Notes: generated by a model from the letters alone, not told the origin. Positions 1-12,010 are shown, counted from the stretch's first letter. The stretch is DNA of 64,000 nt from an uncultured Hyphomonas sp. (GCF_963976075.1 NZ_CAXBJH010000001.1); one strand, 5' to 3'. Program-made: numbers and translations.

Positions 1-1
1 C

Positions 2-84
2 GCGCTCATGCTGAGCGAAGTCGAAGCACAGGCGCGGGCTGGGTCCCGGATATTTGCTGACGCAAATTCCGGGATGACAGGAAC
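2..84. repeat. REP-type palindromic composite (B-type hairpin plus A-type GTCATCCCGG hairpin), right half of a nested element cut by the window edge
   Basis: 37-84 is identical (48 bp) to 1839-1886. 2-79 is an inverted copy of 1690-1766 with conserved arms and different loops. Confidence 0.9.
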
Positions 85-93
85 GTAAGTTCC

Positions 94-119
94 GGAACCC
101 ATCCCCCGCTCCCCGCGTT
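94..119 (+). promoter_or_regulatory. EcfG/sigmaT-type general stress promoter GGAAC-N17-CGTT
   Basis: GGAAC 94-98 and CGTT 116-119 with a 17-nt spacer, 34 nt upstream of the DUF3008-type gene. Confidence 0.75.
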
Positions 120-153
120 CCTTCCGCAAACCTCAAGCGAGAAGGAGCCCCCA

Positions 154-339
154 ATGCCTGCCCAATCCGAAGCCCAGCAAAAGGCCGCCGGCGCGGCCCT
201 GTCCGCCAAACGCGGCGACACCAAGGTCAGCGACCTGCAAGGCGCCTCGAAAGAGATGTACGATTCGATGAGCGAGAAAGAACTCGAAGACCTCGCCTCG
301 ACGAACCATGACGACCTCCCCGAAAAGAAGGGGGACTGA
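154..339 (+). CDS. DUF3008-family small stress protein (61 aa)
   Basis: MPAQSEAQQKAAGAALSAKRG...SMSEKELEDLAST signature; GGAG RBS upstream. Confidence 0.85.
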   Translation: MPAQSEAQQKAAGAALSAKRGDTKVSDLQGASKEMYDSMSEKELEDLASTNHDDLPEKKGD

Positions 340-350
340 GTCTCCTCCGC

Positions 351-442
351 CCGCCTCCCCGGGCTCGACCCGGGGTCTCATGCGGCGGCTCCGCGCCCTC
401 AGCTGCAAGAGACTCCGGCGTTCGCCGGAGATACGGAATGGG
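351..442. repeat. 92-bp REP doublet (REPIN-like), copy 1
   Basis: Hairpins CCCCGGG-CTCGA-CCCGGGG and CTCCGGCG-TT-CGCCGGAG arranged as an inverted pair; 82/92 identical to 790-881. Confidence 0.9.
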
Positions 443-448
443 GGAAGT

Positions 449-733
449 TCAGAGCAGCGTTTCGGCGAGATCCCGCCACTGAGGATTGATCTCCTCCACC
501 AACTCGATCTTCCAGACACGTTTCCAGTTCTTGATCTGATGTTCCCGTGCGACGGCCTCCTCACGGGTATCGAGCACCTCATACCAGGCGAGAATCTCGC
601 AATTGTACTTGTCTGTGAAACCGGGGACCACATGGCAGCGATGCTCCCACGCCCGGCGGTTCAGATCATCCGTCTGCCCGCAATAGAGCGTGCCACGCGG
701 CTTGTTGGTCATGATGTAGGTGTAGAAAGCCAT
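449..733 (-). CDS. small GIY-YIG endonuclease (COG2827/UPF0213-like, 94 aa)
   Basis: FYTY...LYCGQT..L.RR..EH...GFT.KY...E...RE.Q.K.W motifs. Confidence 0.9.
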   Translation of the reverse strand: MAFYTYIMTNKPRGTLYCGQTDDLNRRAWEHRCHVVPGFTDKYNCEILAWYEVLDTREEAVAREHQIKNWKRVWKIELVEEINPQWRDLAETLL

Positions 734-749
734 GCCAATCCCCCGGATG

Positions 750-777
750 AGTTTGGCAATCCGGCTTCAAGTGTCAA
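750..777 (-). promoter_or_regulatory. sigma70-like promoter of the GIY-YIG gene
   Basis: TTGACA (777-772), 16-nt spacer, CAAACT (755-750) on the minus strand, lying between the two repeats. Confidence 0.55.
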
Positions 778-789
778 TATCCCCTCACT

Positions 790-881
790 CCGCCTCCCCG
801 GGCTTGATCCGGGGTCTCGTGCGGCGGCTCCGCGCTTCAAGCCGCAAGAGACTCCGGCGTGCGCCGGAGAAACGGAATGGG
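790..881. repeat. 92-bp REP doublet (REPIN-like), copy 2
   Basis: Direct repeat of 351-442 with 10 mismatches; both hairpins retained (one stem mismatch in the first). Confidence 0.9.
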
Positions 882-933
882 CATAGAGTCACCCCCAATC
901 CGTCTGAGACCCCGCGCCCCCATCCTGTTCCGC

Positions 934-1608
934 ATGAGCCATTCGCCTGCGGACCTTCTCTTTCATGCGGCCCGGTTCAGCCTTGAGCGGCTGGACTGGC
1001 TGGCCGGGGACATGCGCCGCGCGCTGGGGCTGGGCCGCCTGCCCTGCCTGCCTTTCCTCGCGCGCTGGCAACTCCGCCAGCTGACACGCTTCCTCGCCCA
1101 GGCCGAGCCGCTGCTGCGCCGCCTGATCGTGCTCATGGCCGCAGACCTTGGCGCGCTGCCCGCTCGTCCCCGCGGCGAGCCGGCCGCCCGCGTCGCTCCC
1201 AGCCAGAAACCACCCAACCGCCCCCTCTTCCCGCAGCCGCATTTCCGCCTCTGCGAAGCCGCCCCCAGCCAGACGCCTCGCACGCCGCCGCCGAAGCGCT
1301 TCCGCACCGGGCCGCGCATCCGCCGCCTCGATGTCGAGACGCCGGTCGATCTCTCCGACTATCCCCCAGATCCGCACGATATCCTGCCCGCCACGCGGCA
1401 GGTTCGCCGCCTGCTGGCGCTGGAGGATGCGCTGGAAAACCTGCCCCGCTATGTCGAGGCGATGCGCCGCCTTCTCGCCGGCCCGCGCCCTGTCATCGCC
1501 CGCGCCCTGCCGCCCGCCTTTTGCCGCTTGCCGGTGACGCAAGCCGAACAGGTGACGCTGACGGAGCTGCATGAGGCGGCCGTGCGCGAAACTCCGGATA
1601 CGTCCTGA
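934..1608 (+). CDS. hypothetical Pro/Arg-rich protein (224 aa from the ATG at 934)
   Basis: GC3-rich codon usage from 934; motifs AE..LRRLIV.MAA and RRLLALEDALE.LP. The upstream in-frame extension to 859 runs through the repeat. Confidence 0.65.
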   Translation: MSHSPADLLFHAARFSLERLDWLAGDMRRALGLGRLPCLPFLARWQLRQLTRFLAQAEPLLRRLIVLMAADLGALPARPRGEPAARVAPSQKPPNRPLFPQPHFRLCEAAPSQTPRTPPPKRFRTGPRIRRLDVETPVDLSDYPPDPHDILPATRQVRRLLALEDALENLPRYVEAMRRLLAGPRPVIARALPPAFCRLPVTQAEQVTLTELHEAAVRETPDTS

Positions 1609-1689
1609 GGCGGATCATGATTCCTGAAACCATGTTACCGGCCGGGCGGGCCCCGCGCCGGGGTCTGGTGCTGCACGCCTCTTATTTCT

Positions 1690-1886
1690 TGTCATCCCGG
1701 AAAGCGCCCCGCGCTTATCCGGGACCCAGCCCGCTTACATGCTTCGACTTCGCTCAGCATGAGCGCTCTTTTTTTGCGCCACATGCCGCACTCATCCTGA
1801 GCGAAGTCGAAGGATAATGAGTCTCCCGCAAAACCTGCGGCTGGGTCCCGGATATTTGCTGACGCAAATTCCGGGATGACAGGAAC
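1690..1886. repeat. nested REP composite A[B B']A'
   Basis: Outer inverted pair TGTCATCCCGG...CCGGGACCCAGC (1690-1730) and GCTGGGTCCCGG...CCGGGATGACA (1840-1881). Inner inverted pair CTTCGACTTCGCTCAG (1742-1757) and CTGAGCGAAGTCGAAG (1797-1812). Confidence 0.9.
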
Positions 1887-1898
1887 AGGGAAGCAGCC

Positions 1899-2618
1899 CT
1901 ATTCCAGCAAACTCAATCCCACGCCCGCAAAGCTGATCTCCCGCTCGTCCACATCGAGGCCCATCGCCTCGGCGCGCTCAAGAATCTCCTCCGCATCCGG
2001 CAAATAGAGCCCGAACGCGGCCAGCCGCTCTGTCTTGCCTTCCCGGAACACGATCGCGCCATCATCGAGATAGAGCACGCGCTCATCCACGGTCAGCCCC
2101 AGCGCCAGGGCCCAGCGCTGGGCGAGGCCGTCCGGGTCCGGTGATTCCATTGCGGCGCTGGCCAGCCGTCCCGGCACGGCCTGCTCGCGCCAGTGCGGCC
2201 CGCCCCAGCGCCAGCTGCCCGCCGGGCGCGCCTCATCGACGGAGACAATCGCCCCGCCAATATCGGCCGGATGAAGATGGCTCGCGGAAATGTCCGGCAG
2301 GTCTATGTTCCAGACGCGGCGAATGCCCATCCCGTCCACGCGGGCCCGCAGGGCATCAAGATCATCGGTCTGGAAGATCGCCATATAGCCGCCCTCCCCG
2401 CCCCGGTCGATGAAACGCTGGGCGGGCGCGGCCTCCGCGATCGGCACGACCACTTCCAGGAACTGGTCCCCAATCGCATAGACGCGGTTCTCAAGGCCAA
2501 ACTCCCGGACCCCCGGATCAATGAACGGCTCACCAAGGCCGAGCAGTTCGCCGAGTTGGTCCGCCGTCTCCAGTGTCGCCGCCGCAATCACCAGCTGGCG
2601 CAAGCGTGGTATCGTCAT
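1899..2618 (-). CDS. VOC/glyoxalase-like protein
   Basis: RLRQLVIAA...GLENRV..IGDQFLEVV.P...GEGGYM.I.Q...LHP.D.GG pattern. Confidence 0.75.
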   Translation of the reverse strand: MTIPRLRQLVIAAATLETADQLGELLGLGEPFIDPGVREFGLENRVYAIGDQFLEVVVPIAEAAPAQRFIDRGGEGGYMAIFQTDDLDALRARVDGMGIRRVWNIDLPDISASHLHPADIGGAIVSVDEARPAGSWRWGGPHWREQAVPGRLASAAMESPDPDGLAQRWALALGLTVDERVLYLDDGAIVFREGKTERLAAFGLYLPDAEEILERAEAMGLDVDEREISFAGVGLSLLE

Positions 2619-8641: not shown

Positions 8642-8727
8642 TCAGGCCGCCTTACGATGATGCGGGAGACATCCTCGGCGTAGTGCTGGGCCTTTTTTTC
8701 GCCGACGCCGCTGATCAGGTGCAGATC
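8642..8727 (-). pseudogene. displaced degenerate copy of the recQ 3' end
   Basis: 8659-8724 matches 10193-10258 at 64/66 nt. It reads [23 protein letters not shown], then a 1-nt deletion, then KAA-TGA. Confidence 0.85.
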
Positions 8728-10075
8728 AGCGTGCGCAACAATACGTCATTACACGACCATCCCGGTTTAAAACCGGCCCAAAACCTGCGACAATAAACCA
8801 GGGTCCCGCCGCATTGTGCCTACGTGAGACCACGATCACGTCACCGCTCACCAGTCGTTCCGGCACCCACTCGCTCGCATGGGTTATTCCATTCGTTCTC
8901 TCAACGGTGTAGTCTGGTCGAAGCGTGTTAGTCCGCCCGTCGGCATAAGCAAGTAACTCGGCGCTCGAAGGGCTGGTGCGGCCGCAGATTCCAAATCCGC
9001 TCCAATTCTCGTCCAAGAGAATTTCATGCTGCCAGAAGGTGACTTTTCCAGACTGGGGATCTACCTGCGCGGGCTGGAATGGCACAACCGGAAAATAGTC
9101 GTGATAAGGATTGTGATAACCTGAGTGATCGAGCATGAAAGCCCCCCCACCGGACGCTTTCCTTATTCCAGTCTCGCGCTCAATTTTCCCATGAAAGCCC
9201 CACCTGACGCCGTTGAATTTCAACCCTCTGAGTATGTCCCGAATGCCATCCTGCATCTCGTCACTTAGATATTCATACGGCACCCAGGGCGCGCCATTCT
9301 GCGGCAAGAGCGGTAGAATCTCGGATTTCGTATCCTCCGGCAGATAAATGACCGTCGCAGCATTGCACTTGCCCGTGTCCACGCGTCTTCCATGATTTAT
9401 GGCATGTAGCCGTTTGTGCAATTTCACGGACGAGGAAATGGTTCCGGGGATCTGGTGGCCCCACGGCCCCGGCAGGGCGCCGACCTGTTCGAACTCGGCA
9501 GCGGCTTTCTCCCGCCAGGCCCGCCATTCCTCGAGGCTGGATCTGGCGATGCCGCTGTCCAGAACCTCGATCTTTGCATACGGGCTGTCATAGGCCTTGT
9601 CGGACAGGTAGCCGATGGCAAAGCCGATATCGTCCGCATTCGGATACCACATTAGCAGGGGCAGGAAGTCATCCGGCACCCGTTCCGTCACGATTTCCGG
9701 CTTGCCTTTCGGCGTGATGCGTTTCGGCTCCCACATGGAGGCATCGCACACTTCCGGCGTGCGGGCCCCGATCAGTTCCCCCGATTGCGTCGGCACAAGC
9801 ATGATCTGGGGCGCCATGCCGAATGTCACCGAAGGCGTCGTATAGGTCCAGTTTGTCACCTTGCCGCCGCAGGACACGACATAATCGAGCTTCACCAGCT
9901 CGCCCGTCTCTTTCACGCGAATGTCGGCATGCACCCGGAAAAACCCCTTCGGCAAATCCTTTACGCTCACGACAAATGGAGACCCGGCCCTGTCACAGGC
10001 CACGATGAGCAGGCTGGCAACCAGTCCCAAGGCACACTTGCGCACCGCCCCGCGCCACATCCGGCTGATCGTCAT
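8726..10075 (-). CDS. hypothetical lipoprotein (449 aa), apparently horizontally acquired
   Basis: Lipobox LLIVA-C; visibly more AT-rich codons than the neighbours; flanked by the recQ-end duplication. Confidence 0.8.
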   Translation of the reverse strand: MTISRMWRGAVRKCALGLVASLLIVACDRAGSPFVVSVKDLPKGFFRVHADIRVKETGELVKLDYVVSCGGKVTNWTYTTPSVTFGMAPQIMLVPTQSGELIGARTPEVCDASMWEPKRITPKGKPEIVTERVPDDFLPLLMWYPNADDIGFAIGYLSDKAYDSPYAKIEVLDSGIARSSLEEWRAWREKAAAEFEQVGALPGPWGHQIPGTISSSVKLHKRLHAINHGRRVDTGKCNAATVIYLPEDTKSEILPLLPQNGAPWVPYEYLSDEMQDGIRDILRGLKFNGVRWGFHGKIERETGIRKASGGGAFMLDHSGYHNPYHDYFPVVPFQPAQVDPQSGKVTFWQHEILLDENWSGFGICGRTSPSSAELLAYADGRTNTLRPDYTVERTNGITHASEWVPERLVSGDVIVVSRRHNAAGPWFIVAGFGPVLNRDGRVMTYCCAR

Positions 10076-10174: not shown

Positions 10175-12010
10175 CTACACCGCCTCGCCGACGATGCGGG
10201 AGACATCCTCGGCGTAGCGCTGGGCCTTTTTTTCGCCGACGCCGCTGATCAGGCGCAGCTCGTCGGCGTCGACGGGGCGCTCGCGGGCGATCTCGGCGAG
10301 GGTGCGGTCATGGAAGATGACATAGGGCGGCACGCCGCGCGTCTTGGCGGTTTCGGTGCGCCAGCTGCGCAGCATGTCGAACAGGATCTGGTCGCGCTCC
10401 GACATGTCGGCCAGGGCCTGCGCCGCCACGCGGCTCTTGCCTTTGGCGCGCTTGCGGGTGGCGGCGGGGTCAGCGCGCAGCATCAGGGTGCGGTCACCCC
10501 GGAACAGGGCGCGGGCGGCCTCGGCATCCGGCACCACGACCGCAGGCCGGTTCATCTCGCCGCCTTCGGCCAGCATGCCATCATAGAGCAAGGCATCGAA
10601 CACGCGGCCCCAGCCCTGTTTCGGCATGTCCTTGCCGATGCCATAGGTCGACTGGGTGGAGAGTTCCTCGTCGAAACTGTCCTTGGCCTGTCCGAGCAAG
10701 TGATTGATCAGGCGGCCGCGCCCGATCTTCTGGCCGCAGCGCAGCACGGCGGAGACCGCCATCTGCGCCCAGCGGGTGGCATCATAGGGCTCGCCGGTCT
10801 CGCCCCGGCAGGAATCACACGCACCGCAGGCCTCGACCCCCTCTTCCCCGAAATAGCGGCGCACGGCGGCGCGGCGGCATTCATCGCCATCGAAGAAGGC
10901 AAACAGCTGGCGGGTCTTGGTGATCTGCACGCGCTTGACCGCTTCGGGCGCGTCGCCCTCATAGGTCCAGCTGAGCGAGCGGCGCATGTCGGCGGGCCCA
11001 TAGAGCGCGACGCCTTCGGCAGGCTCGCTATCGCGGCCTGCGCGGCCGACTTCCTGCCAATAGGCTTCCATCGTCTTCGGCGGATCAGCATGGATGACGA
11101 AACGAACGTCCGGCTTGTCGACGCCCATGCCGAAGGCGACCGTCGCGCACATGACGAGGCCATCTTCCAGCAGGAAACGCCGCTGGCGCTCGGCCCGCAC
11201 ATCGGCATCGAGCCCCGCATGATAGGCCAGCGCGGTGATGCCCGCGCGCTCGATGGCCTCGGCGAGATCTTCAGTGGCGTTGCGGGTGGCGGCATAGACA
11301 ATGCCGGACAGGCCCGGACGCGCCTTGACGAGGGAGACGACCCGCTGGGCGCGGTTGCCCTCCTTGGGCTCTGCGGCGAGGGCAAGATTGGGCCGGTCGA
11401 AGCTCGCCACATGGACGGCCGGTTGGGTGAGGTCGAGCTGGGCGAGAATGTCATCGCGCGTGCGGGTGTCGGCGGTGGCGGTCACCGCGAGGCGCGGCAC
11501 GCCGGGGAACAGATCCTTCAGCCGCCCGAGGGCGCGATAGTCCGGGCGGAAATCATGGCCCCATTGGCTGACGCAGTGGGCCTCGTCCACGGCGATCAGC
11601 GAGACCTTCATCTGGGCGAGGCGCTGGGCCAGCCCCGTGCCCATGCCTTCGGGCGAGACATAGAGCAGATCCATCTCGCCGCGGGCGGCCGCCTCCAGCG
11701 CTTCGGCGCGGGCATTGAAGTCCATAGAGGAATCGAGCCGCTCGGCGCGCACGCCGACCTGTTTCAGCGCATCAACCTGATCGGCCATCAGCGCGATCAG
11801 CGGCGAGACGACAATGCCGATACCGTCGCGCAACAGCGCCGGGATCTGGTAGCAGAGCGACTTGCCGCCGCCGGTCGGCAGCACGGCGAGGCCATCCTTG
11901 CCCGCCAGCGTGTCGGCGATGACATCCTCCTGCAGCCCCCGGAAGGCGTCATAGCCATAGACGCGCTTCAGCAGCGCGCGGGCATCATCGAGAGTTGGCT
12001 GGGCAGACAT
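10175..12010 (-). CDS. recQ: ATP-dependent DNA helicase RecQ
   Basis: [47 protein letters not shown]; RQC and HRDC domains. Confidence 0.97.

Follow-up and report, generated by a model that had tools for sequence, protein, structure and literature searches.

The Ssn family (CDD cd10448), described in 2025 by Chenal et al. (PMC11893778), comprises single-domain GIY-YIG endonucleases that act on single-stranded DNA (ssDNA) and whose genes are flanked by hairpins termed NTS or SRM (Ssn-related motif). SsnA of Neisseria meningitidis, a single-domain GIY-YIG protein of 94 aa, binds a 28-nt NTS hairpin (CGTCATTCCCGCGMAVGCGGGAATCYRG) exclusively in the form of ssDNA, with cleavage a few nucleotides upstream of the hairpin; the RNA form of the motif is not bound, and the exchanges Y6A, Y17A and E64A each abolish cleavage (PMC11893778). 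Hairpin-specific cleavage of ssDNA was demonstrated for four Ssn homologs, and 71% of the homolog genes have an SRM within 5 kb, 42% on both sides (PMC11893778). Here we describe a locus in a 64,000-nt stretch of DNA (the window) from an uncultured Hyphomonas sp. (GCF_963976075.1, NZ_CAXBJH010000001.1), in which the gene for a 94-aa GIY-YIG protein lies between two copies of a repeat that is built from two inverted hairpins (a doublet). We consider this locus to be an Ssn-family module, composed of an SsnA-type endonuclease gene (ssnA) and its cognate SRM-like doublets with a mechanism assigned by homology, and we put the probability of this reading at roughly 0.85.

Chenal et al. likened the arrangement 'NTS-ssnA-NTS' to an insertion sequence (IS) and compared it with IS200/IS605 and with the pairing of RAYTs (REP-associated tyrosine transposases) and REPs (repetitive extragenic palindromes) (PMC11893778). 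An earlier note on the window had proposed that the GIY-YIG nuclease is functionally paired with its own flanking hairpins, in analogy to RAYT and REP, and had stated that no characterised example was known. The pairing idea is essentially right in substance, and is supported by the enrichment of repeats beside homologous genes, by empty sites and by the hairpin-specific cleavage published for the four homologs. The second statement does not hold, since the Ssn/NTS system had already been published in 2025, with the comparison to RAYT-REP drawn (PMC11893778). CGTC-tagged REPs, which according to Di Nocera et al. (2013) 'apparently lack a dedicated transposase' (PMC3733652), are short GC hairpins with a 5' tag of the CGTC or TGTC type and a CCA-type tail, found mainly in Alphaproteobacteria and often as head-to-head or tail-to-tail dimers. 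Their published criteria are a CGTC, TGTC or CCTC tag, a stem of 8–9 bp starting with AT, a loop of 4–5 nt and a CCA-type tail (PMC3733652). Ssn-related motifs are evidently the CGTC-tagged REPs of the 2013 survey (PMC3733652); the Ssn paper (PMC11893778) does not cite this survey and does not make the link.

As the earlier note had seen, a single 94-aa GIY-YIG gene lies between the two repeats. It is on the minus strand and is the only open reading frame (ORF) there with a family match (Pfam GIY-YIG, E 7e-15, residues 3–75), and it is present once in the window. The AlphaFold model of the protein shows one compact domain with the GIY-YIG fold (pLDDT 94.5), and Foldseek returned UPF0213, Slx1 and UvrC-N as the nearest solved structures. 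In an alignment of 43 sequences, residues Y6, Y17, G19, R27, H31 and E64 (numbered on the window protein) are invariant. For comparison with Neisseria we used the N. gonorrhoeae ortholog, a 94-aa ORF standing for N. meningitidis SsnA, which was located in gonococcal chromosomes that are wrongly labelled as plasmids in PLSDB. The two proteins are 48% identical over 85 residues without gaps (BLASTP, E 3e-32), the tblastn match has an E value of 6e-22 against a 7.3-Gb database, and Y6, Y17 and E64 are in register. Judged on this ortholog, the window protein lies well within the published operational limit for the family (E < 1e-10 to Neisseria SsnA).

By other searches the window protein falls into a very large protein family whose members have about 95 aa. 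When the NTS-flanked homolog of locus L027 (L numbers denote the loci fetched for comparison) served as the query, more than 8000 matches were obtained, with none from Neisseria among the 120 matches listed. Neither NCBIfam, which has no cd10448-specific model, nor PADLOC was informative for the protein, and with PHROGs a weak match to a homing endonuclease was all that was obtained. A sequence search of PDB chains retrieved UPF0213 relatives only (profile E 3.6e-9 to 1ZG2). UPF0213/YhbQ-type proteins (PDB 1ZG2, 1YWL) and the Slx1 domain agree with the window protein in fold and core catalytic residues, but their identity to it is only about 25%, they form a separate subfamily and no association with flanking repeats has been described for them.

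The repeats at 351–442 and 790–881 are identical at 82 of 92 positions with a start-to-start spacing of 439 bp, which confirms the repeat comparison of the earlier note, and both can be extended to the left, to 341 and 780 (86% identity over 102 nt). Two 23-nt sub-patterns (up to 3 mismatches each) match only the left doublet (D_L) and the right doublet (D_R) in the 64 kb, where shuffled sequences lead to an expectation of 0. D_L begins 2 nt past the stop codon of the upstream DUF3008 gene and finishes 7 nt short of the ssnA stop codon. Folded as ssDNA, each copy forms hairpin A (on the plus strand), a central stem and hairpin C (on the minus strand), closed by a short outer stem, with energies of −29.5 and −27.9 kcal/mol (z about −2.1 to −2.25). 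Both outer hairpins follow one consensus unit in inverted orientation, 5'-CCG-Y-N-T / 7-8-bp GC stem / loop CTTGA or GNAN / stem / YCTC-NN-GCG-3', and this single unit fits both halves of 25 doublets. The central stem is made of the paired tails of the two outer units, and since these units are inverted and their tails pair, each repeat is a tail-to-tail (-> <-) doublet. The doublet profile matches both strands with nearly equal scores; each doublet is almost its own reverse complement.

The structure is also supported by sequence changes in relatives. RNAalifold applied to 25 doublets preferred pairing across the hairpins over the three-hairpin fold, and the latter was therefore tested explicitly on a subset of 17 doublets. 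In these, 88.5% of the cells are paired, a value that falls to 50% or less once the partners are slid against each other. The stem of hairpin A is paired to 100% with 3 compensatory pairs, and the stem of hairpin C to 93% with a T-A to C-G covariation in 8 of the 17 sequences. Folding and covariation thus bear out the inverted pair of REP-like hairpins noticed earlier, with the central stem in addition. A tRNA-like cloverleaf was also considered for the doublet and was rejected, as a tRNA scan of the repeats came back empty.

The association of gene and doublet extends to relatives. Orthologs with 67–97% identity in Hyphomonadaceae carry a matching flanking doublet irrespective of context. Loci L004, L006 and L008 have the gene with doublets at the same place as the window, L010 has the order gyrB-doublet-gene-doublet, in which the gene is inverted with respect to the doublets, and the ortholog of H. 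beringensis has one doublet. Doublet-flanked orthologs adjoin uvrD in L097 and polA in L101–L103, and lie between gyrB and a glyoxalase gene in L099 and L100. Doublets flank orthologs of 67–84% identity in L008, L010, L014, L015, L097 and L099–L103, with any gene orientation and any neighbours. A search of 638 kb of fetched loci with the doublet profile resulted in about 47 sites, about 39 of which lie no more than 150 nt from ssnA, a zone that makes up less than 5% of the DNA.

More distant homologs also have repeats on both sides, and these are short tagged GC hairpins (e.g., CGTCATTGCCGGGCTTGACCCGGCAATCCAT and GTCGTCCCCGCGAAAGCGGGGACCCAG). We aligned the 270 nt upstream of the gene with the 270 nt downstream in 72 evaluable metagenome loci (48–69% identity) and in 771 control window pairs. 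In 57 of the 72 loci the repeat score, direct or inverted, was at least 20, while the 99th percentile of the controls was about 15. Exact SRM matches, counted for 80 loci, occur at 1.08 per kb within 300 nt of the gene versus 0.045 per kb at distances above 1 kb, a 24-fold difference, and are mostly in '+' orientation upstream and in '-' orientation downstream. The enrichment of repeats beside homologous genes, which the earlier note had suggested as a check, is thus seen in flanking repeats, SRM density and profile matches alike. The gonococcal ssnA locus (L116, NZ_CP119140.1, 1880775–1884041) contains 16 NTS copies in 3.3 kb, several of them as -> <- pairs of about 104 nt, and shares this doublet layout with the window. 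The source of this locus is PLSDB, where complete N. gonorrhoeae chromosomes of 2.17 Mb are entered as 'plasmids'. A Usitatibacter-like ssnA homolog in L027 (4100–4700), with 57% identity to the window protein, lies between tandem arrays in which Neisseria-type NTS recur about every 30–60 nt.

In its overall design the locus resembles the described Ssn systems: a 94-aa single-domain GIY-YIG protein with Y6, Y17 and E64 is encoded between tagged hairpins, some of which are arranged as -> <- doublets, and the repeat unit consists of a 5' unpaired tag, a GC stem, a loop of 4–5 nt and a C-containing tail. It differs in the tags, which are CGCC and CGTA (consensus CCG-Y-N-T) instead of CGTCAT, in the tail (YCTC instead of ATCYRG), in the number of doublets, about 2–4 per genome compared to hundreds of copies, and in its host, a free-living marine alphaproteobacterium. 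Flanks in L016, L094 and L101 (CGCTCAT-CCCGGC-GAAG-GCCGGGAT-CTC) are intermediate between the hairpins of the window doublets (family 1) and CGTC-tagged REPs. We filed the gene as an Ssn member with a divergent cognate motif because of its identity to the Neisseria protein, its residues and fold, the near-SRM hairpins, the SRM enrichment and the NTS arrays of L027. Biochemical characterisation of the family has so far been limited to Neisseria and Wolbachia, and the window provides a case from a free-living marine alphaproteobacterium. Its divergent motif, with a CCG-Y-N-T tag and a YCTC tail, can help to map Ssn sequence specificities with a view to ssDNA tools.

Copy number was low for family 1. 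The strict two-hairpin pattern has 3 matches in 185,579 species genomes, all beside ssnA: 2 flank the gene in the window's species and 1 lies upstream of the H. beringensis ortholog. In metagenome assemblies the word depth of the doublets is about 1–2 times the flanking baseline, and unitigs run through them. Family-1 doublets are low-copy and do not form a dispersed population of REPs or REPINs (REP doublets forming hairpins). With REPtrons (RAYT plus REP/REPIN) the locus shares a single-copy nuclease gene, REPIN-like inverted hairpin doublets around it, vertical inheritance and, presumably, recognition of hairpins in ssDNA. The differences concern the enzyme, for which the only Pfam match is the hydrolytic GIY-YIG instead of the HUH/Y1 tyrosine with its covalent intermediate, the tags (CGCC, CGTA and TGTC, CGTC-like instead of GTAG), and the flanking doublets, which are not dispersed in tens to hundreds of copies (2 in 64 kb; a second family is moderately multi-copy). 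The REPtron-like unit with a GIY-YIG enzyme in the RAYT role, as suggested earlier, is therefore retained for the pairing of nuclease and hairpins but not for a dispersed REP population, since the genome-wide count gave few copies (2 strict matches in the representative genome of the species).

This second family (family 2) is represented by the hairpin TGTCAT-CCCGGAATTTGC-GTCA-GCAAATATCCGGG-ACCCAG at 37–84 (minus strand), beside a CTGAGCGAAGTCGAAG arm at 11–26, and by a composite repeat downstream, in which inverted TGTCAT-tagged end hairpins at 1690–1731 (plus) and 1839–1881 (minus) enclose inverted CTGAGCGAAGTCGAAG arms. The composite folds as a single long ssDNA hairpin (−70.8 kcal/mol, z −12.3). 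Its end hairpins, TGTCAT-CCCGGA...TCCGGG-ACCCAG, fit all SRM positions except the loop, which has 16 nt compared to a maximum of 5. With TGTC, AT, a stem and ACCCAG the family-2 hairpins are like CGTC-tagged REPs, as are many flanks of distant ssnA genes (e.g., CGTCATTGCCGGGCTTGACCCGGCAATCCAT), but their stem-loop is longer; family-1 hairpins deviate from these REPs in the tag, in a 7-bp stem that does not start with AT, and in the TCTC tail. Family 2 is multi-copy, with 8–30 times the baseline word depth, and assembly unitigs break within it, including at position 55. All hairpin-forming SRM-like elements of the window lie within its first 1.9 kb.

The locus also exists in a state lacking the gene. 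In contigs from runs X12, X16 and X20 position 339 is followed directly by 786, so that 446 bp are absent, and in one contig a joint between 400 and 840 leaves out 439 bp. L104–L109, which belong to a very common Hyphomonas lineage with a 95% identical DUF3008, show the DUF3008 stop codon, one doublet and ORF227, with no ssnA within 5 kb. The single-repeat alleles looked for since the earlier note were thus found. The unit missing from these empty sites measures 439–446 bp and comprises the gene and one doublet; since exactly one doublet and no gene is present there, recombination within the doublets is the probable cause of the gain or loss of the 439-bp unit. In its left flank the solo doublet corresponds to the L copy, and in its loop and right flank to the R copy, as would be expected from recombination within the doublets in either direction. 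Across the window, L006 and L008, doublets in the same position are 94–95% (L006) and 79–88% (L008) identical, compared to 86% for L versus R. Left and right copies are therefore positional orthologs across lineages, and the occupied state is old and vertically inherited. Doublet number in neighbouring spacers differs among strains. The natural one-doublet empty-site allele and the identity of SRMs with CGTC-tagged REPs go slightly beyond the 2025 paper and leave its basic picture unchanged.

Several observations weigh against a dedicated module of ssnA and its doublets. The tags CGCC and CGTA depart from the HGTC of the published motif, and none of the four window hairpins matches the strict SRM regular expression (HGTCWYN(0-2)YYVSBRHN(0-5)WNVSBRGN(0-2)RNCYNB): 3 have 1 mismatch and 1 has 2, all in the expected register and with the deviations in the tag. 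The sole exact match at the gene (824–853, minus strand) forms no hairpin. The multi-copy and more canonical family 2 clusters on both sides of ssnA and may be an additional or even the main target of SsnA. Doublets also occur in the same region of Hyphomonas genomes without ssnA within 5 kb and hence do not strictly require the gene next to them. The polymorphism is compatible with insertion and deletion alike. Finally, neither the 439-bp circle predicted by the earlier note nor an excision junction was present in 11 metagenome or unclassified runs, represented by assembled contigs, which drop rare forms.

For the Ssn-family module, a mechanism can be proposed in analogy to the Neisseria and Wolbachia enzymes. 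The SsnA-type protein would bind each tagged hairpin only in ssDNA, for instance during replication, repair or DNA entry, would recognise the stem together with the short unpaired tag and tail, and would hydrolyse the DNA strand at a distance of a few nucleotides on the 5' side of the tag. Its cellular role might, by the same analogy, be the control of recombination of motif-bearing ssDNA. The 439-bp unit would be gained or lost by recombination between the doublets, most simply by deletion between the direct repeats (86% identical) through a RecA-type process or slippage, and nicks introduced by SsnA could possibly stimulate this recombination. Since the doublets are close to their own reverse complement, the same recombination can invert the gene. 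Being direct repeats as well as near-palindromes, they allow deletion, re-insertion and inversion, which would explain the empty sites and the orientation in L010.

A more active role of the enzyme appears rather unlikely to us. Here the 439-bp unit would be a self-mobilising cassette: SsnA, acting like a RAYT or the TnpA of IS200/IS605, would cut 5' of the same-strand hairpins in ssDNA and release the gene with one doublet, which would re-enter at other doublets. The empty sites would be its targets, and solo doublets or family 2 would also be spread in this way. The IS-like order of repeat, gene and repeat and the presence/absence polymorphism with exact doublet boundaries are in agreement with such a cassette. 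The same is true for the different intergenic sites and both gene orientations found in the gyrB-glyoxalase region (L010 and L011 versus the window and L099), for the positions next to uvrD or polA elsewhere, and for the strain-variable doublet numbers in neighbouring spacers. However, ssnA is single per window and per locus and syntenic, the positional orthology of L and R points to an old, vertically inherited occupied state, the doublets are low-copy, the assembled contigs contain no circle junction, and simple homologous deletion between direct repeats accounts for the empty site. Moreover, GIY-YIG nucleases cut DNA by hydrolysis, without a covalent enzyme-DNA intermediate, and strand transfer by a GIY-YIG nuclease alone is therefore impossible. 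To our knowledge no transposition-type activity has been reported for any Ssn protein, and a mobilising, RAYT-like role is unproven anywhere. A wider conjecture, which we regard as doubtful, is that the unit is a minimal self-propagating cassette with SsnA nicks driving excision, inversion and re-insertion at solo doublets, and that Ssn nucleases are the missing dedicated enzymes that generate and spread the CGTC-tagged REPs of Alphaproteobacteria, as the GIY-YIG counterpart of RAYTs.

The repeats might instead act at the level of RNA, as bidirectional terminators, mRNA stabilisers or small RNAs that insulate a small gene without any specific interaction with its product. Doublets begin right after the stop codons of DUF3008 in the window and of gyrB in L010 and L011, their stable structure is kept by compensatory change, and many REPs are found downstream of ORFs and are probably transcribed (PMC3733652). 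We nevertheless judge this explanation to be improbable. A comparison of the doublets with Rfam at permissive E values gave no family at threshold (the best, BjrC68, reached 17.7 bits versus a gathering score of 39), neither hairpin is followed by a T-run, and a terminator scan was silent there. The elements are nearly palindromic and occur in either orientation relative to their neighbours. Their conserved unpaired tag and tail bases are those that SsnA reads in ssDNA, the RNA form being unbound by SsnA (PMC11893778), and a family-wide tie to one protein family is unexpected for generic terminators.

Chance juxtaposition of generic intergenic REPs with a short gene, conceivable as Alphaproteobacteria can hold many intergenic CGTC-type REPs (PMC3733652) and family 2 lies close by, is effectively refuted by the strict matches (3/3 beside ssnA), the restriction of the doublets in the 64 kb to the two sides of this gene, and the flanking-repeat, SRM-density and profile results, in which the pairing recurs in orthologs with other neighbours. 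Insertion of the gene into one repeat, in the manner of a homing endonuclease, was likewise considered and rejected, as both flanking doublets are complete.

Coordinates of the features at the ssnA locus, counted from the first nucleotide of the window
Feature	Position	Strand	Basis
Right half of family-2 repeat, truncated by window edge	1–84	-	Fits published SRM motif except 16-nt loop insert
DUF3008 gene, 61 aa, upstream neighbour	154–339	+	Pfam PF11450, E 5e-31
Left doublet D_L, SRM-like hairpin pair tail-to-tail plus central stem	341–442	.	Repeat comparison, folding, profile
Hairpin A of D_L, tag CGCC, CGCCT-CCCCGGG-CTCGA-CCCGGGG-TCTCA	352–380	+	SRM regular expression, 2 mismatches
Hairpin C of D_L, tag CGTA, CGTAT-CTCCGGC-GAAC-GCCGGAG-TCTCT	408–435	-	SRM regular expression, 1 mismatch
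ssnA-type gene, 94-aa single-domain GIY-YIG nuclease	449–733	-	Pfam GIY-YIG, E 7e-15
TTGACA hexamer, possible -35 box, 39 nt upstream of ssnA ATG	772–777	-	No good -10 element; not called by promoter scan
Right doublet D_R, direct repeat of D_L; hairpin A 791–819 (+), hairpin C 847–874 (-)	780–881	.	
Conserved ORF, 243–249 aa, downstream neighbour; predicted start overlaps D_R end	877–1608	+	ORF prediction, synteny
Degenerate third-doublet remnant (best-matching part 1658–1674)	1640–1680	+	Family D3; intact doublet at equivalent position in L008
Complete family-2 composite repeat, about 200 nt, MITE (miniature inverted-repeat transposable element)/REPIN-like	1686–1886	.	Multi-copy, long hairpin fold
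Glyoxalase_3 gene	1899–2618		Pfam, synteny

The earlier note had also assigned the gene its own promoter. A TTGACA hexamer is indeed present, but no acceptable -10 element follows it, a consensus promoter scan made no call, and among the relatives it is kept only in L006 and L008, the closest ones. Several orthologs have the doublet directly next to the ribosome-binding site, where a TTGACA-type promoter would not fit.

The same DNA as in the window was found in the metagenome-assembled genome Hyphomonas sp. 3NakV-07 and in numerous marine metagenomes. The gene order is gyrB-DUF3008-ssnA-ORF243-Glyoxalase_3, with gyrB immediately left of the window start. The ORF downstream of D_R has no match in Pfam or PADLOC. 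Its candidate start codons (GTG 859, ATG 877) fall within the right doublet, and its real start is probably further downstream, e.g., at the ATG at 935. Variation is locally concentrated in the spacer that separates gyrB from DUF3008 (window 1–153; L004 5688–6494; L104–L109 about 1470–2360; L113 1133–2244), where strains carry repeats only, a 268-aa ORF, a 253-aa ORF, a methyltransferase gene or PadR plus an ORF, often together with a doublet. Orthologs of ssnA in Hyphomonadaceae repeatedly adjoin replication or repair genes, namely gyrB (L010, L011, L099), uvrD (L097) and polA (L101–L103), which could be due to chance or to a preference of the module for such neighbourhoods. In L094 the neighbour of the ortholog encodes a 536-aa GIY-YIG protein.

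Further downstream in the window, a 73-nt direct repeat is present at 8655–8727 and 10189–10261 (95% identical, 1534 bp apart). The 3' end of recQ (HRDC region; recQ at 10175–12010, minus strand) forms one copy, and the other lies just past the stop codon of a 449-aa ORF (8726–10075, minus strand) that has no Pfam or PHROG match. This looks like a 1.5-kb insertion at the 3' end of recQ that duplicated or restored the recQ tail.

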